This document shows, piece by piece, positions 1 through 56,699 of a stretch of DNA of 64,000 nucleotides (positions are counted from its first letter, which is position 1; each line of letters starts with the position of its first letter). The stretch comes from Nitrospiraceae bacterium (GTDB taxonomy: Bacteria > Nitrospirota > Nitrospiria > Nitrospirales > Nitrospiraceae). A program made the translations under genes and the position numbers. The DNA is taken from the NCBI GenBank assembly GCA_046351115.1, contig JAXLZB010000001.1:2990570-3054569 (forward strand), read 5' to 3'. Under the pieces are notes generated by a model. That model was not told the origin of the DNA. It saw nothing but the letters and a program-made list of their open reading frames with translations, and did not search any database.

Positions 1-113
1 CTCCTCCGATGCCCCTTTGTGATGGGTATCCTGGGCCAGTCGCGGACCAATGTGACCGGCGAAGCAGTCGGACAGGTCTCCGTCTTAGGAAAGAGCAGCT
101 AAAGGATTCAACT

Positions 114-2000
114 ATGCATGAATCTCAAGGAAGCAGTCAGTGGTGTCGAGCGTCATGGAAGTTGTCCGCTCTCTGTGCGGGTATGCTTGCGATGCTTTGG
201 TTCATGATGGCAGCTCCTCAGTCGGGGCTTGCCGGGGAGTCGCCTACTGATGTGTTCTTCCACACCCCCGGAGTTCCAAGCGGGCCGGCGGCGCCGACCG
301 CGAATGAGATTCACTATCCTCAATACGGGTCGATGGATAGCCGCCTGTTGGTGTGGTTTGTCACGCAGCAGCATACGTATTTCGGGGGCTTCGTCTTGGC
401 CTTGCCGATTTTTTCCGTGTTGCTTGAATTTTTGGGGTTGATGGCCAGGAATCCTGCCCTGTCGCTGCGCTACGACGGGTTGGCTCGGGACTTACTCAAG
501 GTCGCGCTGCTTTCTCTCTCGGTGACCGCGGTGGTCGGCAGTCTGATGCTTGGGATGTTCATCACGCTCTATCCCAGTTTCATGCAGTACATGGGCTCGA
601 CTTTCAAAGTGATGATGCCGCTCTATGCCCTCGTGTTCGTGGGCACGACGCTACTGACGATTGTCTACTACTACACGTGGAATCGGCTGTCGGCTCCCGG
701 CTTGAAGTATGGCCATGCCACGATCGGATTGCTGTCGGTGGTGTTTGGAACCTCGCTGCTGCTGCTGGCCAACGCCTGGGCTGCCTTTATGATGTCTCCT
801 GCCGGTGTCGACGCGGAGGGCCGATATCTGGGAAATCCTTGGCACTTACTGCATTCGGCCTTGTGGAATCCGCTCAATGTTCATCGTTTCCTGGCTGATA
901 TCATGTCGGGCGGTGCGGTGGTCCTGGCCTATGCCTGTTACCGGTTTTTCACCGGAAAGAATCAGGAAGAGCGGGCCTATTACGATTGGGTCGGCTACAT
1001 TTTCTTGTTTGTCACTGTCTGCGCATTGCTCCCCATGCCCTTTGCCGGCTACTGGCTCATGCGGTCGGTCTATGCTTTCCGCCAGAGCATGGGAGTCACG
1101 ATGATGGGGGGGCTTTTGACCTGGCTGTTCGTGGTCCAGGCGTTGTTGATCGGGGCGTTGTTCTTGGGGGTGAACTACTATCTTTGGCAAAGCACGGGGC
1201 GCATCCGTGGTGGCGAACGCTACCAGTCCTATTACCAGTACCTGTTATTGGCCCTGCTTGGGTGCCTGTTCATTTGGCTGACGCCCCATACGTTGTTGAT
1301 GAGCGACAGCGAAGTAAAGGCCATGGGCGGTGCGCAGCATCCAGTCATCGGCAATTATGGCGTCATGTCATCGAAGAACGGCGCAGTCAACGTCATGATC
1401 TGTATCACGACGTTGAGTTATATCCTGTACCGTCGCGCCAATCGAACCATGACTATTTCCTGGGTCAAGCGGGGCAATGTGGTGCTCGGTGTCCTCTTCG
1501 GCCTTGGCATCGTGCATATTGTGTGGTTGTCGATCTACGGTTTTTACTTGCCGGCTAGCATCAGGGTCGCTTTGTCTGGCCCGCAAGCGTTGACGACGCT
1601 AACGGTAGTGGTCTTGGGTCTGGTGCTGAACCGACAAATGCTGCGGGGAGCCACGATTCACGGTCCCGTCCAATGGGGCAACATTTCAGTACGGGGCATG
1701 GTGGGGCTGTTTGGTCTCGCGGCGGCATTTTCTTGGGTGATGGGCTTGATGGGTTATATCCGTTCGTCCGGAAGACTGGCATGGCATGTCAGCGAGTTGA
1801 TGCCCGATACGTCCCCTTGGGCCTTTACGCCGACCATCGGCTTTGCGGCCAAGATGGTGACGATCAATATGGTGGTCTTTTGGGGTGTGGTGTTTTTCTT
1901 GTTTTGGGTCTGTCAGCGTGGCCAGCGACCGGTCATGCACGAAGCAGTCGATGCTGAGAAGGAGCCGGTGTTTCTGCCGACTCCTTCGCATGAGAGCTAG
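114..2000 (+). CDS. Cytochrome bd-like oxidase subunit I paralogue (CydA-like; no CydB gene nearby)
   Basis: ORF track 9..2000; preferred start is ATG 114 with aaagga upstream. Polytopic membrane protein collinear with 5537..7471 (MMSPAGVD, WHxxHxALWNPLNxH, GYIRSSxRLxWHV). Confidence 0.85.
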   Translation: MHESQGSSQWCRASWKLSALCAGMLAMLWFMMAAPQSGLAGESPTDVFFHTPGVPSGPAAPTANEIHYPQYGSMDSRLLVWFVTQQHTYFGGFVLALPIFSVLLEFLGLMARNPALSLRYDGLARDLLKVALLSLSVTAVVGSLMLGMFITLYPSFMQYMGSTFKVMMPLYALVFVGTTLLTIVYYYTWNRLSAPGLKYGHATIGLLSVVFGTSLLLLANAWAAFMMSPAGVDAEGRYLGNPWHLLHSALWNPLNVHRFLADIMSGGAVVLAYACYRFFTGKNQEERAYYDWVGYIFLFVTVCALLPMPFAGYWLMRSVYAFRQSMGVTMMGGLLTWLFVVQALLIGALFLGVNYYLWQSTGRIRGGERYQSYYQYLLLALLGCLFIWLTPHTLLMSDSEVKAMGGAQHPVIGNYGVMSSKNGAVNVMICITTLSYILYRRANRTMTISWVKRGNVVLGVLFGLGIVHIVWLSIYGFYLPASIRVALSGPQALTTLTVVVLGLVLNRQMLRGATIHGPVQWGNISVRGMVGLFGLAAAFSWVMGLMGYIRSSGRLAWHVSELMPDTSPWAFTPTIGFAAKMVTINMVVFWGVVFFLFWVCQRGQRPVMHEAVDAEKEPVFLPTPSHES

Positions 2001-2681: not shown

Positions 2682-2718
2682 TCGGCACGATGTTCGAGCC
2701 GAGGTAGGTGTCCAGCCC

Positions 2719-3111: not shown

Positions 3112-3126
3112 AGGGCGTGTAGCGAA

Positions 3127-4041: not shown

Positions 4042-4052
4042 TTGGTCGTGTC

Positions 4053-5008: not shown

Positions 5009-5037
5009 TTGACAACCATTCCAGCCAAAACTATAAT
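5009..5037 (+). promoter_or_regulatory. Sigma-70 promoter, exact consensus TTGACA-N17-TATAAT
   Basis: TTGACA at 5009..5014, 17-nt spacer, TATAAT at 5032..5037. Lies in an AT-rich intergenic region 3 nt after the upstream stop codon. Confidence 0.6.
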
Positions 5038-5536: not shown

Positions 5537-7471
5537 ATGGGTCCGGTAACCCGCAAGAAGTTGATGTCGATTATGGCGCTCAGCGCGATGATCGGCCTCC
5601 TCCTTCTGCCTGTCCTGGTTTCGATACCTGCGCTCGCCAGTGGTGGCGGAGGAGCTGCCCCAGCCGCTCCCGCTGATTCCGCCAAGAAGGACGGTGGTGA
5701 GGCGAAGGTTGAGAAGGGTAAGGATGTGTACTACAAGACGGAGGGTATTGTCTCAGGCCCTCCGGCCCCAAAGACGACCGACGGGGAGAAGGACTATCCT
5801 CGGTACAATTTTGAGAGCCGCGTCCTCCTCTGGTTTGCTAACCAGCAGCACCTCTATTATGGAAGCTTTGTGCTCGCGGTTCCGATCTTTTGCATGATCA
5901 TTGAGTTCATGGGGGTGGTAACTAAGGATAAAGCCCTCGCCAAGCGATATGATCAATTGGCTTATGACTTTATCAAGATCAGTCTGACGGCCTACTCTCT
6001 GACGGCAATCTTGGGTGGTATTCTGATCTTCACCTTCCTGACTCTCTATCCCGCATTCTTCCAGTACCTCTCGAACATTTTCCGGCCGGTCATGCATATT
6101 TATGCGCTGACCTTCGTCGCAGAGAGCGGTACCCTCTACATTTATTATTACGGATGGGACAAGATGAAGGAGGGATTCCTTAAGTGGATCCACCTCAGCA
6201 TGTCTGTCATCCTGAACGTCATCGGCACCCTCCTGATGTTCCTGGCGAACTCGTGGATCGGCTTCATGATGTCGCCGGCCGGTGTTGATGAGCAGGGCCG
6301 ATTCCTGGGGAATATCTGGCACGTCATCCACACCGCCTTGTGGAACCCGTTGAACCTGCACCGTATTCTTGGCAACATGGCCTTCGGCGGCGGCGTCGTG
6401 GCGGCCTACGCCGCCTATCGGTTCTTGTCTGCGAAGACCGACGAAGAGCGGGCGCACTATGACTGGATGGGCTACATCGCGATGGCCCTCGGTGTGTCGT
6501 TCTTAATTCCTCTTCCTTTTGCCGGGTACTGGTTGATGCGTGAAGTCTATGCCTATCGTCAGCAGATGGGCATCACGCTGATGGGCGGTCTGCTTGCGTG
6601 GTTGTTCATCATTCAGGCAACCATGATCGGCATTCTCTTCCTCAGCACCAATTATTACCTGTGGCAAGCGTTGGGTCGGATGCGCGGCGCTGAAAAATAT
6701 CAGCGCTATATCAAGTATCTGGTGTTTCTGCTGTGCTGTGGGTACTTGGTGTTTATCACCCCGCACACGATGGTCATGACCCCGGCCGAACTGAAGGCAA
6801 TGGGTGGTCAGCAGCATCCTGTGTTGGGTAACTACGGTGTCATGTCGGCCAAAAACGGTGGCATTAACGTCATCATCACCACAACGGTGTTGAGCTTCGT
6901 CTGGTACATGCGAGGCAACAAAGTCTCGACTGTGTCGTGGGCGAAATTCGGTAACATCTTCATGGGCTGTTTCTTCTTCTTTGCATATATCAATATTATC
7001 TGGCTGGCGATTTACGGATACTACATTCCTGCAAACGTACGTGTAGGGTTATCCGTGCCCCAGGTGGCTACGACGCTCTCGTGTCTCTTCTTCATGTTCG
7101 CCTTGAACAGCGTCATGATGAAGGGCGCCAAGCAGACGGGCGCAATCGAGTGGGGTAAAATCTCTGCGCGATCACAATATGCGCTGATTATGCTTGCGAC
7201 GGCGTTTACCTGGATGATGGGCTTGATGGGCTACATCCGCTCTTCGGTCCGGTTGTTCTGGCACGTGAACGAAATCATGCGTGACAATTCTCCGTGGGCC
7301 TATACGCACACGGTCGGATTCGCTGCGAACATGATTTCCGCCAACGTGTTGTTCTTCTGGATCAGTATCATGTTCGTATTCTGGCTTGGTACGCTAGGAG
7401 CGAAAAAAGCCCCCGTTGAGGCCAAAGCTGGAGCCCCTGGGAGAGCCCCAGAACCGGCTGTCGGTCACTAA
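5537..7471 (+). CDS. Cytochrome bd-like oxidase subunit I (CydA-like; no CydB)
   Basis: 644-aa polytopic protein with an aaggagg RBS. N-terminal signal/anchor plus an Ala/Gly/Pro-rich linker. Paralogue of 114..2000. Confidence 0.9.
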   Translation: MGPVTRKKLMSIMALSAMIGLLLLPVLVSIPALASGGGGAAPAAPADSAKKDGGEAKVEKGKDVYYKTEGIVSGPPAPKTTDGEKDYPRYNFESRVLLWFANQQHLYYGSFVLAVPIFCMIIEFMGVVTKDKALAKRYDQLAYDFIKISLTAYSLTAILGGILIFTFLTLYPAFFQYLSNIFRPVMHIYALTFVAESGTLYIYYYGWDKMKEGFLKWIHLSMSVILNVIGTLLMFLANSWIGFMMSPAGVDEQGRFLGNIWHVIHTALWNPLNLHRILGNMAFGGGVVAAYAAYRFLSAKTDEERAHYDWMGYIAMALGVSFLIPLPFAGYWLMREVYAYRQQMGITLMGGLLAWLFIIQATMIGILFLSTNYYLWQALGRMRGAEKYQRYIKYLVFLLCCGYLVFITPHTMVMTPAELKAMGGQQHPVLGNYGVMSAKNGGINVIITTTVLSFVWYMRGNKVSTVSWAKFGNIFMGCFFFFAYINIIWLAIYGYYIPANVRVGLSVPQVATTLSCLFFMFALNSVMMKGAKQTGAIEWGKISARSQYALIMLATAFTWMMGLMGYIRSSVRLFWHVNEIMRDNSPWAYTHTVGFAANMISANVLFFWISIMFVFWLGTLGAKKAPVEAKAGAPGRAPEPAVGH

Positions 7472-7556: not shown

Positions 7557-8873
7557 GTGATTGAATTGATTAAAGAGGCCCTATCAATGGGGTGGCCTGC
7601 ATTAGGGGTTCTTATCGCCCTAATGTTCTATTTCAAGGCTTCCATCCAGGATCCCGCCGCCAGCAAGCGGGCGGTTTTCAAGACCTTCATCGGCATTCTC
7701 GGGGCGTTTCTCTTGTTCATGGCCATCGCCAACTACAAGATGAACTTCTTCGGTGAGTCCCGGCTCTTGCCGGTCTCTCTGGTCTTGATCACTTCCATGA
7801 CTTTTATGATGGCGGTGTATTTCACCAACATCAGTGCGCTGCTCCGTATCGGTGGATTCATGTTCTTTATCGCCGCTGCTCTGTCCGGGTATGGAAACTG
7901 GCTTCCGCAGGTGGAGGGTGGTTTTCCACCGAAGGAAGAGAAAAAAGATTTCAGCAACATGCCGCAGTCTGAATTGGCCGACGAAGGTGAGAAAATTATT
8001 TTCGGCGGTGTTGGGCAAAACAAGGTTCAGGGTGCAATCGGTAAGGGCCAGTGCCCACTTTGCCATGCATTCCATAAGGGTATGTTGGGCGAGCGTGCTC
8101 CAAATCTCGACGGGATTCCTGAGCGTGCAGATAAGGAAAGACTTGAAGATCCCCGCTATCACCGGGGCAAACCGGCGGATCGTGACTCTTCAATGAAAGA
8201 GGCATTCGCTGGCTCTGGTACTGCTGAGAACGGAATTGAGTATATTGCTGAATCCCATGCCTGCCCCAGCTGCTTCGTCGTGGCGGGGTATGGCGTGAAG
8301 GGTACGAATGACAAAGAGAGCCCGATGCCGGCTATTCACAAGCCGCCAATTTCTCTTTCCCTCCCGGAGCTTGCCGCTGTCGATACGTGGCTGTACGTCC
8401 GTGAAGGTAAGGAAGCGCCGGGCTTTGACGAAATCATCAAGGCCTATGAAAAATTCGTTCCGGAATCAGATCGGCCGAAGCCGGCTGATGCGGGAGCTGC
8501 ACCTGCAGGGGCAACCGCGTTAATGGCCGACGGAACCGAGCCGGTGGATCAGATTTTCGCCAAGGCTCAGTGCGTGGCCTGCCACACGATCCCTGGCATT
8601 GCTGGAGCCACTGGAACCATCGGTCCGAAACTGGTCGAGGGAACGACTGCTCCTCAGCGGATCAAGGACAAGGATTATAAAGGCAAGGCTAAGAGTGGAC
8701 CTGAATACATCATGGAGTCGATCGTGGAACCTAGCGCGTTCGTCGTGAAGGGTTTCCCGGACAACACTATGCCGAAGGTGTTCGGTCAGAAGCTCAGCGC
8801 CGGTGCCTTGAAGAAGATTGTCGAGTACCTGTCTCAGGTACAGGAGGGGAAAGAGCCACCCAAGGCTTCGTAG
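7557..8873 (+). CDS. Membrane-anchored dihaem cytochrome c
   Basis: GTG start after aggagg. About four N-terminal TM helices, then two CxxCH motifs (CPLCH, CVACH). Confidence 0.8.
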   Translation: MIELIKEALSMGWPALGVLIALMFYFKASIQDPAASKRAVFKTFIGILGAFLLFMAIANYKMNFFGESRLLPVSLVLITSMTFMMAVYFTNISALLRIGGFMFFIAAALSGYGNWLPQVEGGFPPKEEKKDFSNMPQSELADEGEKIIFGGVGQNKVQGAIGKGQCPLCHAFHKGMLGERAPNLDGIPERADKERLEDPRYHRGKPADRDSSMKEAFAGSGTAENGIEYIAESHACPSCFVVAGYGVKGTNDKESPMPAIHKPPISLSLPELAAVDTWLYVREGKEAPGFDEIIKAYEKFVPESDRPKPADAGAAPAGATALMADGTEPVDQIFAKAQCVACHTIPGIAGATGTIGPKLVEGTTAPQRIKDKDYKGKAKSGPEYIMESIVEPSAFVVKGFPDNTMPKVFGQKLSAGALKKIVEYLSQVQEGKEPPKAS

Positions 8874-8930: not shown

Positions 8931-9968
8931 ATGAAAGCATTAATGTCAGTCGGCGCCCTGATCGGTGTCGTCGGACTGCTCATGTTGATCGGCATGATCT
9001 TCGGAGTGGTCCCATCGAACACGGTCAGGTTGGTTGAGGGCTACATGCCCATGCAGATGTTGAGCGAGCTGGCGATTTTCGTCGCCGGTTTCACTGGTAT
9101 CAGCTATCTGCTCAACTCGATGGGGATGCCCCTTCCTCGATTTTGGCAAGGCATCCTCTTTTGGGTTTTTGTACAGATGTATTTGAAGTTTCGGGTGTAT
9201 CCCCCTATCCCATTCAGCGTGCGAGCGATGTATGGGACTGTGATCATGGTGGCCGTATTCATGTGGGTGTCGGCAAACGAAGAAGATTGGAAGAAGTTCA
9301 AGCAGCCAATCTATAACGTTCTGGATGCCAATACCGGCTTCCACAAGGCATTGCGCACCATGTACCTCGTTCTCTTGCCGATTTTGATCGGCGGCTTCTC
9401 TTTTCTTTCCATGAAGCCGAGCATCGATGAGCCGATCGAATTGCGTACGGTGCACCCGGCCCCTCCGGCGAGCACCAAGGTGCACGGGAAGACCTACACC
9501 CTGCAGACTTCGCAGAACCCCTATCGTGTCAACCCAGAGGGGAAGTACGATCAGGAATACAGCAACAAGATGATCGTCGAGCAGTCAATGGGACGCCTGA
9601 TGGCCCCGAATGCCAACCCTTGGGACGAAAAGGCTGAAGGGTATCTGAAGTATGTGCGTGAAGGCGGTGAGATTTTCTTCCAGAACTGCCACTTCTGCCA
9701 CGGTGACAATTTGAATGGACGCGGTCTCCATGCGTTCGCCTTCAATCCGATTCCGGCGAACTTTACCGACCCAGGGACGATCGCTCAGCTCCAGGAAACC
9801 TTCATCTTCTGGCGTGTGGCCAAGGGGGGCATCGGCCTTCCCAATGAAGGCTTCCCCTGGGCCTCCGTGATGCCGCCATGGGAACAGCACCTGACCACGG
9901 ATGAAATCTGGAAGGTCATTCTGTTCGAGTACTGGCACACGGGCTACTATCCACGTACTTGGGACTAA
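8931..9968 (+). CDS. Membrane-anchored monohaem cytochrome c
   Basis: About five TM helices, then a class-I-like domain with CHFCHGDNLNG. RBS aaagggaga. Confidence 0.8.
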   Translation: MKALMSVGALIGVVGLLMLIGMIFGVVPSNTVRLVEGYMPMQMLSELAIFVAGFTGISYLLNSMGMPLPRFWQGILFWVFVQMYLKFRVYPPIPFSVRAMYGTVIMVAVFMWVSANEEDWKKFKQPIYNVLDANTGFHKALRTMYLVLLPILIGGFSFLSMKPSIDEPIELRTVHPAPPASTKVHGKTYTLQTSQNPYRVNPEGKYDQEYSNKMIVEQSMGRLMAPNANPWDEKAEGYLKYVREGGEIFFQNCHFCHGDNLNGRGLHAFAFNPIPANFTDPGTIAQLQETFIFWRVAKGGIGLPNEGFPWASVMPPWEQHLTTDEIWKVILFEYWHTGYYPRTWD

Positions 9969-10015: not shown

Positions 10016-11800
10016 ATGAGGAATCTGAGGAAGAAAGTGAAGCCGGCGTTGATCGTCGGTGCCGCCGTGGGGGCTTTGCTCTTCACGGCAAGCATGGGGA
10101 TGGTCGCTCACGCTGCCGATGTCCCTGAAGGCTTCAAATCTGGAGAATTGGCACCGGCACCTCCTGCTGACATGATTGAAGCAGGTAAGCGTGTCTATTT
10201 CACGAAGTGTGTCTGGTGTCATGGCGTGGATGGAGCCGGTGATGGCCCTGGTGCCGACCGCCTGTGGCCCCGTCCGCGCAACTTCAATCAGGGTACGTTC
10301 AAGATTCGCCACACGGCGAGTGGTGAGTTGCCCTTGTTCAACTACAATGAGAAGGCTGTCGACTCTGGCAAGAACGACTTGCTGGATACGGTGACTCACG
10401 GTTTGCCTGGCTCGGCTATGCCGCCGTGGGAAGGTATCTTGACTGAGGAACAGCGTATCCAAGTCTTGGCCTATGTGACGACTCAGCTGGTCAAGGATCG
10501 GAAGTTTACGGACAAGGCTTCTGAAACTCAGACGGTGCTGCAGCTCAGCACGTTGAAGCCTTCTGAGCCAACTGAAGAAAGCGTGAAGCGCGGTGGCGAA
10601 CTGATCGTTGAGAAGAAATGTATTGAGTGCCACGGCCTTGAGGGGCGCGGCGATGGCAACGCCTTCAACCTGAAGGACGACTGGGGCTTTTCCATCCAAC
10701 CGGCGAACTGGCACAAGTGCTGGAACTTCCGGGGAAGCAGGCAGGATCCTTACAACGTTCGGAACATTTTCCGAACGTTCTCGACCGGTCTGAACGGTAC
10801 GCCAATGCCGTCCTTCGCCGACAGTACTTCGGTGGAGGAGCGCTGGAACATTGCGAATTTTGTAAATTCGTTGTGCGAGCGCGACGGTGAAGGCAAGCCC
10901 CTCGGTATCGATCCTCTGACGGATAAGCCGAAGATCAACTTCGTAGTGCCGTCCTCTCCGGTCGAAGGGGATATTTCCGACGATCCTGAGAGTGAAATGT
11001 GGAAGAAGCAGGGGCGCCGTTACGTTGCGATGGGCGGTCAGATCACCCACAAGCCGCGTAACTTCGTCAATCGTATCGACGACGTCTGGGTTAAGTCTCT
11101 CTACAACGAGAAGCAAGTGGTGTATCTGATTCAGTGGGACGATCGGACCAAGAGCGTGGCAGAGGGCAAGTTGCCCTGGGCTCCGACTCAAGTCAACGTC
11201 GAAAACTTTGGTGTGAAGGAACAGGCACCGAAGACTGGCGAAGAAGGTTCCATTGCCGCTGCTCAGAACAATTACACCACGTACAACGACGCGATTGCGT
11301 TCCAATTCCCGATCAAGTGGCAGGAAATTCCCGCTCCGTTCAAGCCGCGGTACCTCTGGGGCGATGCGAAGTTCAATGCCGACATCATCAAGTGGGAAGC
11401 TGACGGGTCCCTGCGTTCCTTCAAGGGAACGGGATGGGATCAGGACTTTGAAGAGCGCGATGACTTCGAAGAGAAGATCAAGCTCATGAAGTCTGAGTGG
11501 AAGAACGGCCGTTGGACAGTCATGATCTCCCGTCCGCTTACTGGTAGTAAGGACGATTATGACGAGTACACCCGGTTTGATGTCGGGAAGTACATTCCGA
11601 TGGTCTTCTTTGCTTGGGATGGTCACAATGGTGATGCCGGACGTAAGATGGCCGTGTCGGCCTTCTACTACACGATTCTGGAACCGCCGATCCCTCGTGA
11701 GGTCTATATCTATCCGGCGATCATCGCCGTCGGTGTGGTCATTCTCGAGGGTTGGGTGCTGACTCGTCGCGCCAACAGGAAGAAGGGCAAGAGCCTGTAG
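10016..11800 (+). CDS. Dihaem cytochrome c fused to an EB_dh / NxrC-type haem-b domain, with a C-terminal TM anchor
   Basis: ORF track 9959..11800 (TTG); ATG 10016 follows ggtgagg. Motifs CVWCHGVDGAGDG and CIECHGLEGRGDG. The C-terminal part is collinear with 28507..29460 and 35232..36074 (AFQFP, IKWEADG, GRWTVMISRPL, VFFAWDGHNGDAGRKMAVS). Confidence 0.8.
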   Translation: MRNLRKKVKPALIVGAAVGALLFTASMGMVAHAADVPEGFKSGELAPAPPADMIEAGKRVYFTKCVWCHGVDGAGDGPGADRLWPRPRNFNQGTFKIRHTASGELPLFNYNEKAVDSGKNDLLDTVTHGLPGSAMPPWEGILTEEQRIQVLAYVTTQLVKDRKFTDKASETQTVLQLSTLKPSEPTEESVKRGGELIVEKKCIECHGLEGRGDGNAFNLKDDWGFSIQPANWHKCWNFRGSRQDPYNVRNIFRTFSTGLNGTPMPSFADSTSVEERWNIANFVNSLCERDGEGKPLGIDPLTDKPKINFVVPSSPVEGDISDDPESEMWKKQGRRYVAMGGQITHKPRNFVNRIDDVWVKSLYNEKQVVYLIQWDDRTKSVAEGKLPWAPTQVNVENFGVKEQAPKTGEEGSIAAAQNNYTTYNDAIAFQFPIKWQEIPAPFKPRYLWGDAKFNADIIKWEADGSLRSFKGTGWDQDFEERDDFEEKIKLMKSEWKNGRWTVMISRPLTGSKDDYDEYTRFDVGKYIPMVFFAWDGHNGDAGRKMAVSAFYYTILEPPIPREVYIYPAIIAVGVVILEGWVLTRRANRKKGKSL

Positions 11801-11827
11801 TCTTCTTGTCGGCATGAGGTAAGTATA

Positions 11828-11866
11828 CGAGGGGGTGAGGAAACTCACCCCCTCGTTGTTTTTGTT
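11828..11866 (+). terminator. Rho-independent terminator
   Basis: cgagggggtgag / ctcaccccctcg 12-bp stem with a gaaa loop, followed by ttgtttttgtt. Confidence 0.85.
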
Positions 11867-11903
11867 CTCGGGGACGACCGAGGAAGAAGTGACACAGCTG
11901 CCC

Positions 11904-12512
11904 ATGATTTCAGACGTTGCTGGTGTTCTGATCGCTGGGGGAAAGAGCCGACGTATGGGGCGTGACAAACGCTTTCTGGCAGTGTCTGGCCGATCCTTGT
12001 TTGATCGCACGTTGGATGTCTTGGAGTCGGTGTTCAAAGAGATCATCGTGGTGCTGGCCGAGCCAGTTCCCGAATTGGATGTCAGGGGATTTCAGGTGGT
12101 TTATGATGCAATCCCGAATTGCGGGAGCCTCGGCGGGTTATATACGGGATTGCGATCCACCCCATTGCCGCGCGTTTTCGCAGTGGCGTGTGACATGCCG
12201 TTTCTCAATCCCAGCCTCGTCAGGTACTTCTCCAAGTTCGACTCGTCCGCGGACATTGTCGTCGCTGAGCTGGCGACCGGTGTCCATCCCATGCATGCGG
12301 TGTATTCGCAGAAGTGTCGACCACTACTTGAGGCTATGGCGCAGCGGGGGGATCTGAAGATTCAACGGTTGTTCCTCGAACCCGACTTACTAGTCCGGGT
12401 CGTGCGTGAGGCGGAACTGGCACCGCTGGACCCTGGCTTGCGCTCATTTCAGAACATCAATACACCGCAAGATTTGGCATTGGCCGAGTCTCTCCTCCCG
12501 CCGGTTTCATAA
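11904..12512 (+). CDS. mobA: Molybdenum cofactor guanylyltransferase
   Basis: GVLIAGGKSRRMGRDKRFL signature. The ORF-track start 11835 lies inside the upstream terminator, so ATG 11904 is preferred. Confidence 0.85.
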   Translation: MISDVAGVLIAGGKSRRMGRDKRFLAVSGRSLFDRTLDVLESVFKEIIVVLAEPVPELDVRGFQVVYDAIPNCGSLGGLYTGLRSTPLPRVFAVACDMPFLNPSLVRYFSKFDSSADIVVAELATGVHPMHAVYSQKCRPLLEAMAQRGDLKIQRLFLEPDLLVRVVREAELAPLDPGLRSFQNINTPQDLALAESLLPPVS

Positions 12513-28506: not shown

Positions 28507-29460
28507 ATGAGACTGATGCAGACACGCAACAAGCGTTTGGTGTTTGGCATTCTGCTCTCTGCCCTTATCGTCGGCGTTATGTTGACGATCGGGCAGGTGC
28601 CCCTCGCGGTCAGCCAACCGGTGACCATTCCCGCGAAGGCGATCAAGGGGCCTATCCCAATGGACGGTGCGAACCCCATTTGGGAAGGAGTGCCAGGGGT
28701 CATTATCCCGCTGAGCGGGCAGACCATCACCACGCCGATGCACCCGAATATTTCGGTGAAGTCGGTGTTCGTGAAGGCAATGACCAACGGGAAGGAGCTT
28801 GGGCTGCGCTTGGAGTGGAGCGACCAGACCAAGAATGACACGGCGATCGGACCGCAGGACTTCCGCGATCAGACCGCCATCATGTTCCCGGTGAACACCG
28901 CCGGGGCGCCGCCGTTCCAGTGTATGGGTCAGTCCGGTGGCACCGTCAATATTTGGCGGTGGAACGCGGAGTGGCAGAAGGACATCGGAAAGGACAGCGC
29001 AGGGTTGTGGGACGTGGACGACCAGTATCCTGGCATCTTCTGGGACTACTACTTCGAAGAGCCGGCCGGTGGGGTGACCTACCCGGATCGTATCGGTCGC
29101 AGCCTTGGCCCATTCAACTCCGGTATCTGGTCTGGCAACATCATGTCTGACCCGACGCTGCGGGTCAGCTCCGTCGAGGATCTGAGCGCCAATGGGTTCA
29201 GCACGTTGACCACGCAGGCCCATCAGGATGTGATCGGGAACGGCGTGTGGGAACCGTCAGGCTCCGTCAAGGGCGGTGGTTACACTGGCCCGACCTGGCG
29301 TGTGGTCATTAAGCGTTCGCTGGAGACCAGCGATGCGAACGACACCCAGTTCAAGGCGGGTATGTCTGTGCCCATCGCGTTCGCGGTGTGGGACGGCTCG
29401 AACATCGAACGGAACGGTATGAAGGCGCTCTCCACCTGGTTCACGCTGAAGTTGCCGTGA
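28507..29460 (+). CDS. NxrC-type haem-b subunit candidate (EB_dh domain), exported
   Basis: Signal peptide. LRLEWSDQTKND, NIWRWNAEWQKD, WRVVIKRSL, AFAVWDGSNIERNGMKALSTW. Confidence 0.8.
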   Translation: MRLMQTRNKRLVFGILLSALIVGVMLTIGQVPLAVSQPVTIPAKAIKGPIPMDGANPIWEGVPGVIIPLSGQTITTPMHPNISVKSVFVKAMTNGKELGLRLEWSDQTKNDTAIGPQDFRDQTAIMFPVNTAGAPPFQCMGQSGGTVNIWRWNAEWQKDIGKDSAGLWDVDDQYPGIFWDYYFEEPAGGVTYPDRIGRSLGPFNSGIWSGNIMSDPTLRVSSVEDLSANGFSTLTTQAHQDVIGNGVWEPSGSVKGGGYTGPTWRVVIKRSLETSDANDTQFKAGMSVPIAFAVWDGSNIERNGMKALSTWFTLKLP

Positions 29461-35231: not shown

Positions 35232-36074
35232 ATGGGGCGAATGACATCGGTCCCAATTTCGCGAACACCTCTATTGGCATTGCTGGCTGGTCTCTTCGTG
35301 GTCGCCCTGTTGCTGGGAGGATTCGGTATTCCCATCGTCAGTTCCGAGGGCATGATCATCCGTGCACAAGCGGTTTCGGGAGATGTGCCGCTCGCTCCGG
35401 AAGATCCCGCCTGGCAGAAGATTCCTCCCATGACATTGCCCTTGAGCGGGCAAATCATCACCCGTCCGGTCTGGCCCGAACCTACTGCGCGCGCATTGAC
35501 CGTGCGGGCGGTTCATAATGGAACCGATATTGCGTTTTTGCTCGAGTGGCAGGACAACACCAAGAATGATCGACTGACTCCAGGAACGTTTCGCGACGGT
35601 GTTGCGATCGGGCTTCCCCTCGGTGACGCCCCGGCCTTCTTCTGCATGGGGCAGCTTGATCACTACATCAACATTTGGCACTGGAAGGCAGATTGGCAGA
35701 GTGACATCGACCGGCGCGCCGCGCGGACCACAGAAAAGGACAAGTCGGGAAGTGGTGAGCCTCGGCGTTTCGAAGTGATCCCCAGACGCGCCTCCTCCGT
35801 CGAGGACTTGATCGGAGGCGGTTTCAGTACCCTGACGACGAAGGAAAAGCAGGGTCGGGTTCAGGGTAAAGCTTACTGGAAGGATGGAACCTGGCACGTT
35901 GTGATGCGGCGCCCATTGTCTAGCGAAGAGCAGGACAACGAAGCCAAGTTGATCCCTGGGCGAATCCAGGCCGTCTCTTTCGCGGTATGGAACGGTGAGA
36001 ATAAGGAGCGCAACGGGCAGAAGGCCGTTGCTCCCTGGTTCCAGCTGTCGTTGGACCCAAGCGTGAAGAGTTAA
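35232..36074 (+). CDS. NxrC-type haem-b subunit candidate (EB_dh domain), second paralogue
   Basis: Signal/anchor. FLLEWQDNTKND, NIWHWKADWQSD, WHVVMRRPL, SFAVWNGENKERNGQKAVAPW. Confidence 0.8.
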   Translation: MGRMTSVPISRTPLLALLAGLFVVALLLGGFGIPIVSSEGMIIRAQAVSGDVPLAPEDPAWQKIPPMTLPLSGQIITRPVWPEPTARALTVRAVHNGTDIAFLLEWQDNTKNDRLTPGTFRDGVAIGLPLGDAPAFFCMGQLDHYINIWHWKADWQSDIDRRAARTTEKDKSGSGEPRRFEVIPRRASSVEDLIGGGFSTLTTKEKQGRVQGKAYWKDGTWHVVMRRPLSSEEQDNEAKLIPGRIQAVSFAVWNGENKERNGQKAVAPWFQLSLDPSVKS

Positions 36075-36573: not shown

Positions 36574-36590
36574 GAGGAGCACCGGGTCGC

Positions 36591-37898: not shown

Positions 37899-37955
37899 GG
37901 TTGGCCTCGTTCTGCATGGTGGGTGAGATCTGCGGGGACAGGAGGAAAAGCGACG

Positions 37956-51664: not shown

Positions 51665-52954
51665 TTAGAGCCAGTTGACCCGTTCTGCGGGTCGGATGTA
51701 GATCGGCTCTTCGACCTGAATGCGCGCCACTTCCTTGCCCGACTTGTTGAAGCCCAGCACGGTGTCGTTATACATGTCGAATCGCTTCCCGTGGATCTGG
51801 GTTTCGAACACTTTCGGGCCCGGAATGACGTCGTACCGGAAGATGATCTGCTGGCTGGCGCGCCACAATTGCAGCACCGCCAACAGTTCGCGGCTCGGCA
51901 CGAGATACTTCTCGATCGCATTGTCGACGCCCGGCCCGAACATCTGCCGGTTGTAGCCCCGCGGCGCGTGCCGCGGCGGAATATAGTACCCGTTGGGCTC
52001 CGTCCCCCATTGCGGGAACAGCGGCAAGGCCACCTGCTCCACGCGGATCGTGTAGTACAGGGGATGCCACCGGTCTTCCGCCCAGAGGCCGTCTTCGCCG
52101 ATGCGCACCAGGCTCTGCATGCGAATCTTGCCCACGCAGGCCGCCATACAGCGCGTTTCCATCGGCTCGCCGCCCGTCAAGGGGTCTTTGCCCTCGATGC
52201 GCGGATAGCACGCAATGCACTTTTCCGACACCCGGGTCGTGCCCCGGTACATCGGCTTCTTGAACGGGCACTGTTCCACGCACTTCTTGTACCCGCGGCA
52301 CCGGTTCTGGTCGATCAACACGATGCCGTCTTCCGGCCGCTTGTAGATCGCCTTGCGCGGGCAGGCTGCCAAGCAGCCCGGATACGTGCAGTGGTTGCAA
52401 ATGCGCTGGAGGTAGAAGAAGTACGTCTCGTGTTCCGGCAAGCTTGAGCCGGAGAGCCGCCACGGTTCGTCCCGGGAGAACCCGGATTTATCGATGTTTT
52501 CCACGAGCGCCCGCATCGAGGTCGCCGTGTCTTCATAGATGTTGACGAACCGCCACTCCTGGTCCGTCGGGATGTAGCCGATCGCCGCCTGGCCCACCTT
52601 GGCGCCCGCGTCGAAAATGGTCATCCCTTCGAACACCCCGTACGGGGCATGGTGCTTGCGGCCGACCCGCACGTTCCATACCTGGCCGCCCGGGTTCACC
52701 TGCTCGATGAGCTGGGTGATCTTCACGTCGTAGAACTGGGGATACCCGCCGTACGGCTTGGTCTCCACGTTGTTCCACCACATATACTCCTGGCCCTTGG
52801 AGAACAGCCAGGTCGACTTGTCCGCCATCGAACAGGTCTGACAGGCCAAACAGCGATTGATGTTGAACACAAAGGCAAACTGCCACTTCGGATGCCGCTC
52901 CTCGTAGGGATACAGCATCTTTCGTCCCAGGTGCCAGTTATACACTTCAGGCAT
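51665..52954 (-). CDS. nxrB: Nitrite oxidoreductase beta subunit (Nitrospira type)
   Basis: 429 aa, MPEVYNWHLGRKMLYPYEERHPKWQFAFVFNINRCLACQTCSMADK. Fe-S motifs CNHCTYPGCLAACP and CRGYKKCVEQCP. No signal peptide. Confidence 0.95.
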   Translation of the reverse strand: MPEVYNWHLGRKMLYPYEERHPKWQFAFVFNINRCLACQTCSMADKSTWLFSKGQEYMWWNNVETKPYGGYPQFYDVKITQLIEQVNPGGQVWNVRVGRKHHAPYGVFEGMTIFDAGAKVGQAAIGYIPTDQEWRFVNIYEDTATSMRALVENIDKSGFSRDEPWRLSGSSLPEHETYFFYLQRICNHCTYPGCLAACPRKAIYKRPEDGIVLIDQNRCRGYKKCVEQCPFKKPMYRGTTRVSEKCIACYPRIEGKDPLTGGEPMETRCMAACVGKIRMQSLVRIGEDGLWAEDRWHPLYYTIRVEQVALPLFPQWGTEPNGYYIPPRHAPRGYNRQMFGPGVDNAIEKYLVPSRELLAVLQLWRASQQIIFRYDVIPGPKVFETQIHGKRFDMYNDTVLGFNKSGKEVARIQVEEPIYIRPAERVNWL

Positions 52955-53025
52955 TGGAAATCCTCCTTCTCATGATCAGATGGTTGTCTGTTGTGAGCTT
53001 CCTCAAGGCTTCCATCGCTCGTCGT

Positions 53026-53059
53026 GCGTGAAGCGTGGTTTGCGATCGACGCTTCACGC
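53026..53059 (-). other. Intercistronic hairpin between nxrA and nxrB
   Basis: gcgtgaagcgt / acgcttcacgc 11-bp perfect stem with a 12-nt loop, 10 nt after the nxrA stop. Confidence 0.45.
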
Positions 53060-53068
53060 GCGCCGCCG

Positions 53069-56000
53069 TTAGACTTTGATCTTGATGTGCTCGCCTTTGA
53101 GCCACTTGATCATGAACTCGTTTTCCTGACCCGGCGTGAAGCCCGTCCGGACCGGTTCCCACGGCCCACGCGCCCCGATGCCGCCGTCTTCCGCCTTGGT
53201 GATGCGGATCAAGCATTCCTTCGGGACCGTGTTGATCGCGTGGTGGTCGACCTGATAGCCCCACTTGAACTTCCAGGCAATCGCGTGTTTGCCCGGCAGC
53301 GAGTCGGTTTGGTGCATCGGCATCAACCAGTTCCGGGTAAAGGACTGTTGGGCCCCATACCGGAAGTTGGACTGATAGCCGGTGTCCACCGCGATGGCGC
53401 GGCCGTCCGGTCGCGTCTCGTGGCCCTTCACCGACTTCGGCGTCGACACGTACGGGGCGTGCTTCGCCATCGTGACGTGGTACGGATACGCCGGGTTGTA
53501 CTTGGCGCGGATCATCAAGCGCGCGACCTTGTAGTACGGATCCGAGGGCTTCCAGCCGCGGTACGGCCGGTCCACCGGGTTGCCGTCGACATACACGTAG
53601 TCGCCGTCGTTGATGCCGCGATCCTTCGCGGCCTGCGGGTTGATGTGGATCTGGTGCTCGCCGACGCCCGGCGTCCGCTTGTCCATGCGGTAGGGATCGC
53701 CGAAGTTCGACTCGTAAATCTGCACCCAGTCGTTCACCGACCACTGGCTGTGGACCCGGTGGCGGGTCTTCGGGGTGACGCAGTAGAACTGGTACCCTTT
53801 TTCCCACAACGGGTTCGCATGCCGTTTGATTTCTCCCCACGGCAACTTGATGTTGCGCACGTGTTTGTCGTCATGGTGCTGCGCCGTGATCGGAATCCCG
53901 TAGTCGTCCGGGCGGACGTACGGGTTGCTCGTCATGATCGCGTTCGGGAGGTAGGGCGTACATTCCGGCCCTTCCCGATGGACGACGAAGTTTTCGCCGT
54001 ACTCGATCGCCTCCGGTTCGATCCGGTAGGTCTCGATCCGGCCCGACCGCGTCCACTGAGGTTTCGACTCGTTGGTTTCTTCCCAGAGCGGATGGCGCGG
54101 ATAGGTGCGGCCCATGACCATCCAGCCCTTTTCCGACTTCAACATGACGTCGGCGCTGTATCCGTAGCAGGTTGAGCTGGCGTCCAGCATCCGCTGCGGG
54201 TACACATCGACGCGGTTCATATAGACGAAATGGAACACGCCGCGGAAGCGGGCATCGCCCGTTATCTCCGTCAACTTGGATGCGACACCGGCGAATGTGT
54301 CGGCATCGTTGCGGGTGTCGTACAACGGCCGGATGCCGCCCTTCCAGATCTGCACCCACGGATTGGACACCGTGGCCGTCATTTCCGGATAGGTGAATTC
54401 CATCCAGCTGTTGCAGGCAAACGCCACATCGGCGTGGTTGACGTCGGATGTCATCTCGATGTCCTGGGTCACGATCATCTCGATGTTCGGGTCGACGTTC
54501 TTCACCATGTCGTAGTGGTGTTTCGCGTTGTTCAGGATGTTCACATTCGTGACCCACCGGACCTTGCTGGGGCTCGGCATGTGGGTCTTGCCGGTGAACA
54601 CCTTGCGTCCGTACTTCGGCGTGTTGACGATCAAGGCCGTGTCGCCGTGGTTCCAGTACCCGACCTCTTCGCCGTAGTAGTACGACTTGGTCTTGATTTC
54701 CTTGCCATGGGCATTGGGGTCCAACGTAAGGTTGAACGGATCTTCTCCCGTATGCACGGCGAGGCCGGCGCCGGACCACGGCACCGCGTTCCAGATGCCG
54801 GCTTTGTAGTTGCCGGACCAGGTGTGGCATCCGGTGCCGAACTTGCCGATATTCCCGGTCAGAGTGAGCACCATGGCTGCCGCACGCCCCATTTCCGTCA
54901 TGTGGAAGTAGTGGCAGACGCCTTCGCCGTTGTGCATCGCGGCCGGCTTGACCGTGCCCGAGTCGCGCGCCCACCGGACAATGAGATCCTTCGGCGCCCG
55001 GGTGATTTGATGCGTCGTATCCAGGTCGTAGTCCTGGAGGTGGACCAAGTACAGCTGGTAGATCGACATGACGTCGACCTCCCGACCGTTCAAGAGCTTC
55101 ACGCGGAACGTCCCGGTCAGGGCCGGGTCGATACCGCTGGCCTTGAAATGAACTCCGACCATTTCACGATGGATGGGGACCGCCTTGCCCTTGGCCAGAT
55201 CCCACACCATCATCCCGCCGAGCCGCTCGATCTGGTCCGGCTTGAGGGATTGGATGCGTCCGGAATAGCTCTTGGAAAAATCCGGCAGCTTGTAGTCCGC
55301 GATGACGTCGCGCGGATCGAGGTATTGCAGCGTATCCGTGCGGACGAGAAGCGGGAGGTCCGTGAAATCCTTGATGTAGTCGATATCCTGCATGTTCTCG
55401 TCGAGAATGATCTTGCAGGCACCGAGGAAGTGTGCGGCATCGGTTTCTGGCCGCAGCGGAATCCAATAGTCGGCCCGATAGGCCGTCGGATTGTATTCCG
55501 GCGTGATGACGACGATCCGGGCGCCGCGCTCGATCGACTCGAGTTTCCAGTGGGCTTCCGGCATCTTGTTCTCGACGAAGTTCTTCCCCCAGCTGGTGTT
55601 CAGTTTGGAGAAGCGCATGTCGTTGAGATCGATGTCGCAGTTCTGCGTGCCGTTCCACCAGGGGTGGGACGGGTCCTGGTCGCCGTGCCAGGTGTAATTC
55701 GAGTAATACTTGCCGCCTTGCGCTTTATCCGGATCAACCTTCCGGATGAATGTGTCGAGGAGAGGCAGGCATCCGCCGTTAAACCTGGTGTTCATCATCT
55801 TGCCGACGATGCCCAGCACCGGCATGCCCGCGCGATGCTTGAAGCACCGCACGCCCGCGCCCTTCATCATCTCGATCATTTCCGGGGCATAGCCCTGCTC
55901 GCGCAACCGCCTCGCACCGGACTCCCCGCTGTACCGCGTCGCGATCACGATGCAGGCCTTGGCCACATACGTAAACGCCGTGTCCCAGGAGACCCGATTC

Positions 56001-56512
56001 ATGTCGTCGAGGAAGCGGCTGTCGAATTTGTATTTGCGTTTGACGTCCGGCGTCAGCTCGGGGGAGCCGTCGTCCATCCACTGCTTCCAGCCCTTCCGCA
56101 TTAACGGCCCCTTCAACCGATAGGGTCCGTACACGCGGCGATGGAAGGTGAACCCCTTCAGGCACATGCGCGGGTTGTGCGCGAATGTCCCGCGATTGCC
56201 GTAGAGGTCCTCATAGGTTTGGTGATCGTAGTTCTGCTCGACCCGCATGACGACGCCGTTCCGGACGAAGGCCCGGACGCGACAGCCGTGGGTATCATTC
56301 GGCGAGCAGCACCACGTAAACGACGAGTCATACCGGTACTGGTCATGGTAGACGCGCTCCCACGACCGGTCCGGATACTCGCCCAGCGGGTTCCCGACTT
56401 CCACGACCGGCTGCAGCGCGGTCAGCGCCAGGACTTTATCCGCCACGGCGATCGCCGCGACGGTTCCCACCGTCACTTTGAGAAATTGTCTCCGTGAAAC
56501 GGAAACGTGCAT
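53069..56512 (-). CDS. nxrA: Nitrite oxidoreductase alpha subunit (periplasmic, Mo-bis-MGD, Tat-exported)
   Basis: MHVSVSRRQFLKVTVGTVAAIAVADKVLA Tat signal. WCCSPNDTHGCR Fe-S motif. About 1147 aa. ATG 56512 with aaggagg 8 nt upstream; the ORF-track TTG is at 56518. Confidence 0.95.
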   Translation of the reverse strand: MHVSVSRRQFLKVTVGTVAAIAVADKVLALTALQPVVEVGNPLGEYPDRSWERVYHDQYRYDSSFTWCCSPNDTHGCRVRAFVRNGVVMRVEQNYDHQTYEDLYGNRGTFAHNPRMCLKGFTFHRRVYGPYRLKGPLMRKGWKQWMDDGSPELTPDVKRKYKFDSRFLDDMNRVSWDTAFTYVAKACIVIATRYSGESGARRLREQGYAPEMIEMMKGAGVRCFKHRAGMPVLGIVGKMMNTRFNGGCLPLLDTFIRKVDPDKAQGGKYYSNYTWHGDQDPSHPWWNGTQNCDIDLNDMRFSKLNTSWGKNFVENKMPEAHWKLESIERGARIVVITPEYNPTAYRADYWIPLRPETDAAHFLGACKIILDENMQDIDYIKDFTDLPLLVRTDTLQYLDPRDVIADYKLPDFSKSYSGRIQSLKPDQIERLGGMMVWDLAKGKAVPIHREMVGVHFKASGIDPALTGTFRVKLLNGREVDVMSIYQLYLVHLQDYDLDTTHQITRAPKDLIVRWARDSGTVKPAAMHNGEGVCHYFHMTEMGRAAAMVLTLTGNIGKFGTGCHTWSGNYKAGIWNAVPWSGAGLAVHTGEDPFNLTLDPNAHGKEIKTKSYYYGEEVGYWNHGDTALIVNTPKYGRKVFTGKTHMPSPSKVRWVTNVNILNNAKHHYDMVKNVDPNIEMIVTQDIEMTSDVNHADVAFACNSWMEFTYPEMTATVSNPWVQIWKGGIRPLYDTRNDADTFAGVASKLTEITGDARFRGVFHFVYMNRVDVYPQRMLDASSTCYGYSADVMLKSEKGWMVMGRTYPRHPLWEETNESKPQWTRSGRIETYRIEPEAIEYGENFVVHREGPECTPYLPNAIMTSNPYVRPDDYGIPITAQHHDDKHVRNIKLPWGEIKRHANPLWEKGYQFYCVTPKTRHRVHSQWSVNDWVQIYESNFGDPYRMDKRTPGVGEHQIHINPQAAKDRGINDGDYVYVDGNPVDRPYRGWKPSDPYYKVARLMIRAKYNPAYPYHVTMAKHAPYVSTPKSVKGHETRPDGRAIAVDTGYQSNFRYGAQQSFTRNWLMPMHQTDSLPGKHAIAWKFKWGYQVDHHAINTVPKECLIRITKAEDGGIGARGPWEPVRTGFTPGQENEFMIKWLKGEHIKIKV

Positions 56513-56684
56513 AGCCAATACCTCCTTGTAAGGCAGATCAATGATTCATGGTGCTGTTCGTGCCATCGAGTCGGCCGGTCCGCAGAACATCTGTGATCAC
56601 CTCCCTTCGCGTGGTCGGATGGAAACATCTCGTTGCGGAACCGGTTGTAATCGTGCGAACAGCGCATGACGGGGTATGGGAATA

Positions 56685-56699
56685 TCAAGTGACGTGCCG
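56685..56699 (-). promoter_or_regulatory. Weak sigma-54 -24/-12 candidate (CGGCAC-N5-TTGAT)
   Basis: Minus-strand CGGCACGTCACTTGA. GG and spacing fit TGGCAC-N5-TTGCW, but the -12 C is an A. About 170 nt upstream of the nxrA ATG. Confidence 0.25.

Follow-up and report, generated by a model that had tools for sequence, protein, structure and literature searches.

How electrons leave the periplasmic nitrite oxidoreductase (NXR) of Nitrospira, and by what the enzyme is tied to the membrane, is a long-standing question in nitrification bioenergetics. It is raised again by the gene at positions 10016-11800 of a 64,000-nucleotide stretch of DNA from a Nitrospiraceae bacterium (assembly GCA_046351115.1, contig JAXLZB010000001.1, positions 2,990,570 to 3,054,569 of the forward strand; hereafter the window), as a protein of the type that it encodes is one of the two published NXR anchor candidates. 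The initial annotation of the window had described this protein as a fusion of a dihaem cytochrome c with an EB_dh-type domain and a C-terminal membrane anchor, and had suggested that it docks NxrAB directly to an oxidase module. The architecture was borne out by sequence, Pfam and fold comparisons, whereas direct docking is now the less likely reading. The protein is probably, although at moderate confidence, the periplasmic, single-helix-anchored cytochrome subunit of a four-subunit bd-like complex of the OR-N2 type. The options are narrowed by the missing canonical haem-b ligands of the protein, by the presence of its gene unit far outside the nitrite oxidisers and by arsenite-oxidase-type neighbours elsewhere.

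Domain architecture and haem-ligand positions

The gene and the parts of its product are as follows.

10016..11800, + strand: alt_NxrC_2-type protein of 594 amino acids (aa), calculated mass 66.9 kDa as precursor and 63.5 kDa when mature
10016..10111, + strand: Sec-type signal peptide, residues 1-32, ending in ...VAHA/AD, from sequence inspection, with a predicted helix at 9-30
10163..10879, + strand: dihaem class-I cytochrome c unit, residues ~50-288, with C65xxCH69/Met135 and C202xxCH206/Met264 and a match to 6h5l_B
10928..11683, + strand: EB_dh/DOMON-like beta-sandwich, residues ~305-556, from Pfam, profile and fold, with Trp448 and Met545 in place of the canonical Met and Lys
11699..11797, + strand: C-terminal transmembrane helix (~residues 562-584) and basic cytoplasmic tail, from sequence and prediction (AlphaFold2 helix 562-593)

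The open reading frame (ORF) that ends at 11800 on the plus strand holds an in-frame TTG at 9959 and an ATG at 10016. The ATG is taken as the true start because it is preceded by GGTGAGG, a Shine-Dalgarno-like motif, and because 120 database homologues of 590-597 aa, the best of them 90% identical, cover 100% of the 594 aa. Residues 1-32 resemble a signal peptide, with a basic n-region, a hydrophobic core and AHA/AD at the end; the translation then holds CVWCHGVDGAGDG (C65-H69) and CIECHGLEGRGDG (C202-H206), and its C-terminal hydrophobic stretch is IYPAIIAVGVVILEGWVLT, followed by RRANRKKGKSL. Pfam recovered Cytochrom_C twice (E 3.6e-19), and the EB_dh profile search that the initial annotation had called for was significant (PF09459, E 3.2e-11, at 44.2 bits where the gathering score is 33.3). 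The two CxxCH motifs and the two distal Met residues (M135, M264) are invariant in 115 of 115 and in 49 of 49 aligned homologues, some of which are only ~30% identical, and they align to the haem sites of 6h5l_B. The first c-haem unit (10163-10330, residues 50-104) also matches the NCBIfam model 'cytochrome 579' with an E of 9e-11, far under the cut-off of that model; in Leptospirillum, which likewise belongs to the Nitrospirota, cytochrome 579 is the periplasmic cytochrome of iron oxidation.

The fold was examined with AlphaFold2. A model computed from 60 close homologues was too poor to be used, with a predicted local distance difference test score (pLDDT) of 57.9, and the one computed from 115 diverse sequences reached a pLDDT of 84.9 and a predicted template-modelling score (pTM) of 0.84, with a long C-terminal helix at 562-593. 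In Foldseek comparisons of this model with the PDB, the N-terminal half matched Kustc0457 of Kuenenia (6h5l_B, template-modelling (TM) score 0.86; sequence E 4.6e-41), and the C-terminal half matched EbdC (2ivf_C, E 2.1e-14, TM score 0.79) and Kuenenia NxrC (7b04, E 3.8e-12, TM score 0.62), with CBM9 and DOMON-type domains, cellobiose dehydrogenase included, ranking lower. A phmmer search of PDB sequences with the full 594-aa protein returned cytochrome c relatives only and no EB_dh structure, and therefore a profile of the EB_dh-like domain alone was needed; built from 21 diverse family members, this profile found Kuenenia NxrC (7b04_C, E 1.2e-24) and EbdC (2ivf_C, E 6.5e-15).

In EbdC the two haem-b ligands are reportedly Met108 and Lys201 (Kloer et al. 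2006). In the printed profile alignments these residues share two columns with Met155 and Lys305 of Kuenenia NxrC (KsNxrC), by which its haem b is coordinated 'as in EBDH' (PMC8387239). In the window protein the column of the Met (EbdC Met108, KsNxrC Met155) is occupied by Trp448, in PRYLWGD and just before the invariant Gly449, and that of the Lys (EbdC Lys201, KsNxrC Lys305) by Met545, in GRKMAVS, with the same register in the BLASTP alignment with a stand-alone paralogue from the window. The neighbouring Lys544 was tried as the equivalent of the canonical Lys and rejected, since the BLASTP alignment with the paralogue and both PDB profile alignments give Met545, one position off. The alignment with EbdC by which the initial annotation had proposed to identify the Met and Lys ligands thus places Trp448 and Met545 in their stead, an outcome that largely tells against its docking inference. 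The gamma-subunit fold is present in this protein, and the canonical haem-b site is absent from it.

Conservation at the two positions depends on the depth of the comparison. Among 60 Nitrospira-type homologues, position 448 is Trp in 43 and Phe in 17 and never Met, position 545 is Met in all 60, and Lys544, His345 and His537 are each present in 60 of 60. Among 115 diverse homologues, position 448 is Arg in 56, Trp in 19, Leu in 15 and Met in 14, and position 545 is Met in 90. Both positions vary almost freely in 103 representatives of clusters at 50% identity, with a Met/Lys pair in just eight and with many pairs (G/R, L/R, F/R, L/G) that cannot ligate iron, and no Met, Lys or His is invariant in the EB_dh-like part across the aligned family. 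The strict conservation of Met545 in these alignments may nevertheless leave room for a haem with other ligation in the domain.

Two stand-alone relatives are encoded further along the window.

28507..29460, + strand: stand-alone NxrC candidate, NxrC_2-like, 34.4 kDa, following a NarJ/TorD-type chaperone gene and keeping the Met (CMGQ) and the Lys (NGMK)
35232..36074, + strand: stand-alone NxrC candidate, NxrC_1-like, 30.9 kDa, keeping the canonical Met and Lys

The canonical motifs of these two paralogues are CMGQ for the Met and NGMK and NGQK for the Lys, and their EB_dh scores are 104.7 bits (28507-29460) and 115.8 bits (35232-36074). The collinearity of both with the C-terminal half of the fusion protein, claimed beforehand, was confirmed by BLASTP: residues 309-559 of the 594-aa protein align with 41-278 of the product of 35232-36074 (E 4e-10), and two collinear segments are common to the protein and the product of 28507-29460 (E 1e-6 and 4e-5). 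The count of three EB_dh paralogues in the window also held, as no fourth EB_dh protein was found among the other window ORFs scanned. Profile, BLASTP and fold matches of this strength are not to be expected by chance. With the NCBIfam model for type-II gamma subunits (TIGR03477), the 594-aa protein scored 55.4 bits against a cut-off of 169.85, and the stand-alone paralogues 146.4 and 155.6 bits. The gene at 10016-11800 is not encoded with alpha-subunit, beta-subunit or chaperone genes; nxrBA lies 40 kb off on the opposite strand, and the NarJ/TorD-type chaperone gene precedes the paralogue at 28507 and not the fusion gene. Many of the family's database entries are automatically labelled 'DMSO reductase family type II enzyme heme b subunit', and these results call for caution towards that label. 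Directly after the NxrC_1-like gene, at 36531-39194, lie two multihaem cytochromes with c554/MtrC-like Pfam matches, which fits the 'two putative pentaheme cyt. c' reported for Nitrospirales in a conserved cluster associated with NXR (PMC12342949).

The four-gene unit and its distribution

The fusion gene is the last of four genes on the plus strand, which are accompanied by the following elements.

5009..5037, + strand: sigma-70-type promoter-like site TTGACA-17-TATAAT, 12/12, a consensus match only, ~500 nucleotides (nt) upstream of the bd-like gene
5537..7471, + strand: first gene, bd-like CydA homologue of OR-N2 type, 644 aa, with several transmembrane helices; Pfam Cyt_bd_oxida_I in the N-terminal half only
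7557..8873, + strand: second gene, membrane cytochrome c with four predicted transmembrane helices and CxxCH at 166 and 339
8931..9968, + strand: third gene, membrane cytochrome c with four predicted transmembrane helices and one CxxCH at 253
11827..11866, + strand: intrinsic-terminator-like hairpin with a 13-bp stem, nine GC pairs and a T-rich tail, starting 27 nt past the stop codon of the fourth gene

The four genes (5537-7471, 7557-8873, 8931-9968 and 10016-11800) are read as one transcription unit because the gaps between them are of 47-85 nt and because the 12/12 sigma-70 consensus and the terminator with its 13-bp stem bracket them. In the first product, a CydA homologue lacking the Q-loop, His105, His219 and His275 have the same spacing as H99, H213 and H269 of the OR-N2 reference (Murali et al. 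Suppl. Table 6). Since the GTG annotated as the start of the next ORF (11835) falls within the hairpin, that ORF probably begins later, at a Met at ~11904.

A profile search found 2324 proteins at E<=1e-10, and most of the full-length family members have 490-620 aa, two CxxCH motifs and a C-terminal transmembrane helix; a search with only the EB_dh-like domain gives 478 clusters at 50% identity, of which 215 reach E<=1e-10. The source names of the profile matches include Methylomirabilales, Planctomycetes, Acidobacteria, Nitrospirota, Deltaproteobacteria, SAR324, Rhodospirillaceae, Paracoccaceae and Chloroflexi, and the four-gene module was seen in Alpha-, Gamma- and Betaproteobacteria, SAR324, Chloroflexi, Acidobacteria, Planctomycetes and Methylomirabilales. 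The full order of bd-like gene, cytochrome c, cytochrome c and fusion gene was present in three of the six contexts inspected (Rhodospirillaceae, SAR324 and Chloroflexi). The Acidobacteria locus has the bd-like gene, one cytochrome c and the fusion gene; on a Methylomirabilis contig of 6.3 kb, a truncated cytochrome c gene is all that precedes the fusion gene; and at the Planctomycetes locus the bd-like gene and one cytochrome c are followed by a 765-aa protein that apparently joins the second cytochrome c to the fusion. Longer homologues of ~740-805 aa with three CxxCH motifs, most with N-terminal transmembrane helices (L006:9001-11298 (P0281), P0179, P0189, P0195, P0213, P0240, P0250 and P0259), look as if the gene for the membrane monohaem cytochrome c had merged with the gene after it, that for the dihaem/EB_dh protein. 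Where the third and fourth genes are apparently fused in this way, both products would seem to belong to one complex.

A scan of GTDB species genomes was seeded with the proteobacterial subgroup, and its 80 loci, drawn from at least 414 confirmed relatives, sample those lineages rather than all phyla. The bd-like gene stood upstream in 75 of the 80 loci and the cytochrome c genes were present in 76-78, the exceptions being cut contigs; the module was usually duplicated in tandem. Neither nxrA nor nxrB was found within ~10 kb in any of the 80 loci. An AioA-like gene was present in 49, mostly of marine metagenome-assembled genomes (MAGs), with the module a few kb downstream of an AioAB-type molybdoenzyme, an enzyme without a NarH-type beta subunit. 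One such molybdoenzyme pair (locus L002) passes the NCBIfam arsenite oxidase cut-offs for both the large subunit (434 vs 359 bits) and the small subunit (128 vs 96 bits), although this enzyme (L002:737-16662) could also be the related iodate reductase. Genes for a CCP_MauG peroxidase, for CarboxypepD_reg/fn3_3 proteins and for Usp/PCP_red together with radical-SAM/SPASM proteins recur near the AioAB-associated modules, and several of the MAG names among these loci point to oxygen-minimum zones. At the Chloroflexi locus the module lies beside an aa3-type oxidase operon.

Since the module occurs in many phyla and nxrAB was near it in 0 of the 80 loci, the EB_dh-like domain cannot generally dock an NxrB-type beta subunit. 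Where the neighbouring enzyme is of the AioAB type and has no NarH-type beta subunit, the domain therefore cannot dock one, and parsimony suggests a role internal to the complex in Nitrospira too.

Around the four genes of the window, two further features bear on the bd-like system and its presumed donor.

9..2000, + strand: second bd-like (OR-N2-type) copy, in the 'bd-like_4' arrangement, 51% identical to the product of 5537-7471
51665..56518, - strand: nxrB (51665-52954) and nxrA (53069-56518), the presumed physiological electron source

The order of genes is bd-like, DUF3047, two FGE-sulfatase genes, bd-like, cytochrome c, cytochrome c and the fusion gene, then MobA-like, GT9, ArgRS, TGT, SecDF and histidine kinase genes, with the NarJ-like and nxrC-like genes lying further along; the order is the same on another Nitrospira contig (L087). 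Downstream of the copy at 9-2000 the window has no cytochrome c or EB_dh gene that would be a partner to this copy alone; the DUF3047 gene and the two genes with FGE-sulfatase domains (2031-5006) stand between it and the four-gene unit, an arrangement kept in L087. The MobA-like NTP-transferase gene (11835-12512), directly downstream of the unit, would serve the synthesis of molybdopterin guanine dinucleotide, which is needed for the cofactor of NxrA; in L087 an ISL3 transposase gene lies between the unit and the MobA-like gene. On the minus strand, 51665-58402 holds nxrB and nxrA followed by genes for a sigma-54-dependent response regulator and a GAF/HAMP histidine kinase, and a second pair, of a PAS histidine kinase and a sigma-54 regulator, is found at 19580-24207, between the four-gene unit and the nxrC-like genes.

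Published relatives of the protein and of its unit

The protein has already been described: it is an orthologue of alt_NxrC_2 of N. moscoviensis (NITMOv2_3640), with matching masses and synteny. Five NxrC candidates were reported in that organism by Mundinger et al. 2019 (PMC6606698), among them alt_NxrC_2 as a dihaem cytochrome c with one signal peptide and one transmembrane helix (66.8/63.8 kDa), NxrC_2 (34.2 kDa) and NxrC_1 (30.8 kDa). The corresponding window proteins are of 66.9/63.5, 34.4 and 30.9 kDa. In the same study (PMC6606698) the alt_NxrC_2 gene is clustered with two membrane cytochromes c and bd-like_3, with a duplicated bd-like_4 a few genes away, and its transcripts are 2.5- to 4-fold below those of the NXR subunits, nxrC_2 included. 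Common to alt_NxrC_2 and the window protein are the signal peptide, the two CxxCH motifs, the EB_dh domain, the C-terminal transmembrane helix, the neighbouring genes and the position relative to the nxrC_2- and nxrC_1-like genes, and there is no substantive difference between the two. An alternative NxrC with two c-haem sites had been described earlier in Nitrospina, in a cluster conserved in Kuenenia and Nitrospira (Lücker et al. 2013, PMC3578206); that of Nitrospina gracilis is reported with two transmembrane helices, whereas the window protein has one.

The idea of an NXR anchor or supercomplex has likewise been published several times (Lücker 2013, PMC3578206; Mundinger 2019, PMC6606698) and was repeated with proteomic data by Leung et al. 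An EbdC homologue in OR-N2 bd-like operons is recorded in the supplement of Murali, Gennis and Hemp 2021 (bioRxiv 10.1101/2021.01.16.426971); these operons share with the window unit a CydA homologue of OR-N2 type, several cytochrome c genes and cytochrome c as the presumed donor. Consequently, both the observation and the docking inference of the initial annotation are already in the literature, and the finding as first described adds nothing to it. The dihaem fusion, the ligand substitutions and the strict four-gene order, which Murali et al. do not describe, were found here; the substituted ligands, a gene order kept strictly across many phyla and the association with AioAB-type genes may be new, as leads and not as established functions.

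Structurally characterised relatives cover the two halves of the protein separately. Kuenenia NxrC (7B04 chain C) and Aromatoleum EbdC (2IVF chain C) have, like the C-terminal half, a beta-sandwich, and like the whole protein are exported by Sec to a periplasmic or anammoxosomal location, but they are soluble, single-domain proteins encoded with alpha and beta subunits and bind haem b on Met/Lys, unlike the window protein with its Trp448/Met545, dihaem unit, transmembrane anchor and operon with a bd-like protein. Kustc0457 (6H5L chain B) aligns end to end with residues 50-288 (E 4.6e-41, 38% identity, TM score 0.86), both CxxCH motifs and distal Met residues included; it is a free-standing, soluble protein bound to the octahaem HAO-like Kustc0458, whereas the dihaem unit of the window is fused to the EB_dh-like domain and the anchor. 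The order of the Kuenenia cluster, from kustd1712 (cydA-like) to 1709, is identical to that of the four-gene unit. The C-terminal cytochrome c part of the second gene (7557-8873) matches PDB 7zs0_A, a 'Hypothetical (Diheme) protein' (E 1.4e-12) that is probably Kustd1711, the haems of which lie at about +350 mV. Kustd1711 was considered as an orthologue of the fusion protein and rejected, since it matches the second gene instead, and moderately; it was studied as a soluble protein, whereas the product of 7557-8873 has four predicted N-terminal transmembrane helices.

Proposed electron entry into the bd-like complex and rival readings

The assignment of the protein as a fixed subunit of an OR-N2 bd-like complex follows from its being strictly inherited together with the bd-like gene and both membrane cytochromes, from the apparent fusions and from the invariant c-haem sites; architecture, fold, ligand substitutions, operon structure, conserved synteny and distribution are its observed basis. 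For the direction of electron flow, the acceptor, the contacts between partners and the haem content of the EB_dh-like domain, we infer the following scheme. The other three subunits would be the bd-like CydA homologue, a dihaem and a monohaem cytochrome c, the latter two with four transmembrane helices each. After Sec export and attachment of haem c, the two His/Met c-haems of the protein would form the entry for high-potential periplasmic electrons, which in Nitrospira would come from nitrite oxidation, via haem b of soluble NxrABC or via a soluble cytochrome c, and would pass onward to the haems of the two membrane cytochromes c and of the bd-like subunit. The latter would reduce O2, or else quinone at the expense of the proton-motive force. 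The EB_dh-like domain, related to gamma subunits but diverged and with the canonical Met/Lys haem-b site lost, would most likely serve as a scaffold on the bd-like subunit, and a haem ligated differently, through Met545, may still be bound in it; the protein would not replace NxrC on NxrB. Nitrite respiration of N. moscoviensis is insensitive to HQNO and sensitive to azide, and therefore electrons go to cytochrome c and an oxidase; delivery by the exposed haem b of NxrC or by a soluble cytochrome fits these data and the +350 mV haems of Kustd1711.

Several observations weigh against this assignment. The Nitrospira clade is ~35% identical to homologues from organisms other than nitrite oxidisers and has its own invariant His345, His537 and Lys544; owing to this divergence and these clade-specific residues, NXR binding or a re-ligated haem b may have been gained in this lineage. 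A band of 62 kDa that co-purified with the nitrite-oxidising system of Nitrospira (Spieck 1998, cited in PMC6606698) fits the mature mass of 63.5 kDa and would favour direct association with NXR. The conservation of Met545 is hard to explain for a purely structural domain, and the absence of nxrAB within 10 kb at the sampled loci leaves room for a type-II DMSO-reductase-family enzyme elsewhere in those genomes. Searches of the literature turned up no cryo-EM or biochemical study of alt_NxrC or of a bd-like/OR-N complex.

The docking inference of the initial annotation corresponds to a membrane-anchoring gamma subunit, in which the EB_dh-like domain would replace soluble NxrC on NxrB and the c-haems would feed the bd-like module of an NXR-bd-like supercomplex. 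Its premises stand as far as the gene adjoins a bd-like module and nxrBA lies in the window, although the label 'oxidase module' assumed an acceptor that the literature leaves as O2 or quinone. The EB_dh fold, closest to that of EbdC and Kuenenia NxrC, speaks for such a role, as do the reported membrane association of Nitrospira NXR taken with the band discussed above, the rank of the alt_NxrC_2 gene among the 40 most transcribed in N. moscoviensis together with the high expression of its protein, and the conservation of the cluster in Nitrospina and its location within the anammox nxr cluster. It is opposed by the absence of the Met/Lys ligands (W/F448, M545) in this protein when both NxrC candidates of the window keep them, since with no haem at the canonical site, if it is indeed empty, electrons of the NxrB [3Fe-4S] cluster would have no nearby acceptor. 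The score far below the gamma-subunit model, the separation of the gene from nxrAB and from the chaperone gene, and the occurrence of the same module in many lineages without nxrAB nearby, beside AioAB-type enzymes, point the same way, and a docked gamma subunit is consequently judged improbable.

Two further possibilities concern the working of the complex itself. The EB_dh-like domain could bind a b-type haem through re-wired ligands and thus complete a b/c/c wire within the OR-N2 complex, which we regard as rather unlikely; the ligands would be Met545, at the former Lys position, with His345, His537 or Lys544 in Nitrospira and with His445 in the proteobacterial group. Met545 itself, with its 60/60 and 90/115 conservation, would suit such a site, as would the clade-invariant His345, His537 and Lys544 (in the wider alignment His537 is confined to the Nitrospira type and His345 mainly so) and position 445, which is His in 61 of the 115 wider homologues. 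The haem of the DOMON-type domain of cellobiose dehydrogenase is ligated by Met/His, and this relative is among the fold matches. The free variation at 448 and 545 among the cluster representatives, including the pairs unable to ligate haem, and the lack of any ligand-capable residue of the domain that is invariant family-wide are difficult to reconcile with a haem of this kind. Alternatively, the complex might run as a cytochrome c:quinone oxidoreductase driven by the proton-motive force, with nitrite-derived electrons and with the fusion protein as its inlet. Such reverse electron transport has been proposed in the literature for the bd-like_3 copy and for the anammox and Nitrospina clusters, and it would agree with the conservation of the module in anammox bacteria, which as strict anaerobes would have little use for an O2 reductase, and with another OR-N2 copy (NIDE0901-like) being the favoured terminal oxidase in Nitrospirales. 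The bd-like proteins, however, have no quinol-binding Q-loop residues, every OR-N family conserves the His that ligates the O2-reducing haem, and the nearby aa3 operon in Chloroflexi and arsenite-oxidase-type genes in Proteobacteria fit an aerobic sink equally well; we hold this mode of operation to be unlikely, though less so than a docked gamma subunit.

Returning to the preferred reading of an electron-entry subunit, it can be tentatively extended, at somewhat less than even chances, to the family as a whole: the EB_dh-like domain would be a re-purposed gamma-subunit fold with a re-wired haem site, and OR-N2 bd-like complexes, with the domain as an integral subunit, would be a general sink for high-potential electrons of the periplasm that various molybdoenzymes deliver. 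If so, the haem site would have Met at the former Lys position and a second ligand that is lineage-specific or missing, and the donors would be NXR in nitrite oxidisers and anammox bacteria and enzymes of the AioAB/IdrAB type in marine Proteobacteria and SAR324. The name 'alt_NxrC' would then be a misnomer, and the membrane attachment of NXR in Nitrospira would need another protein or a transient, cytochrome-mediated contact.

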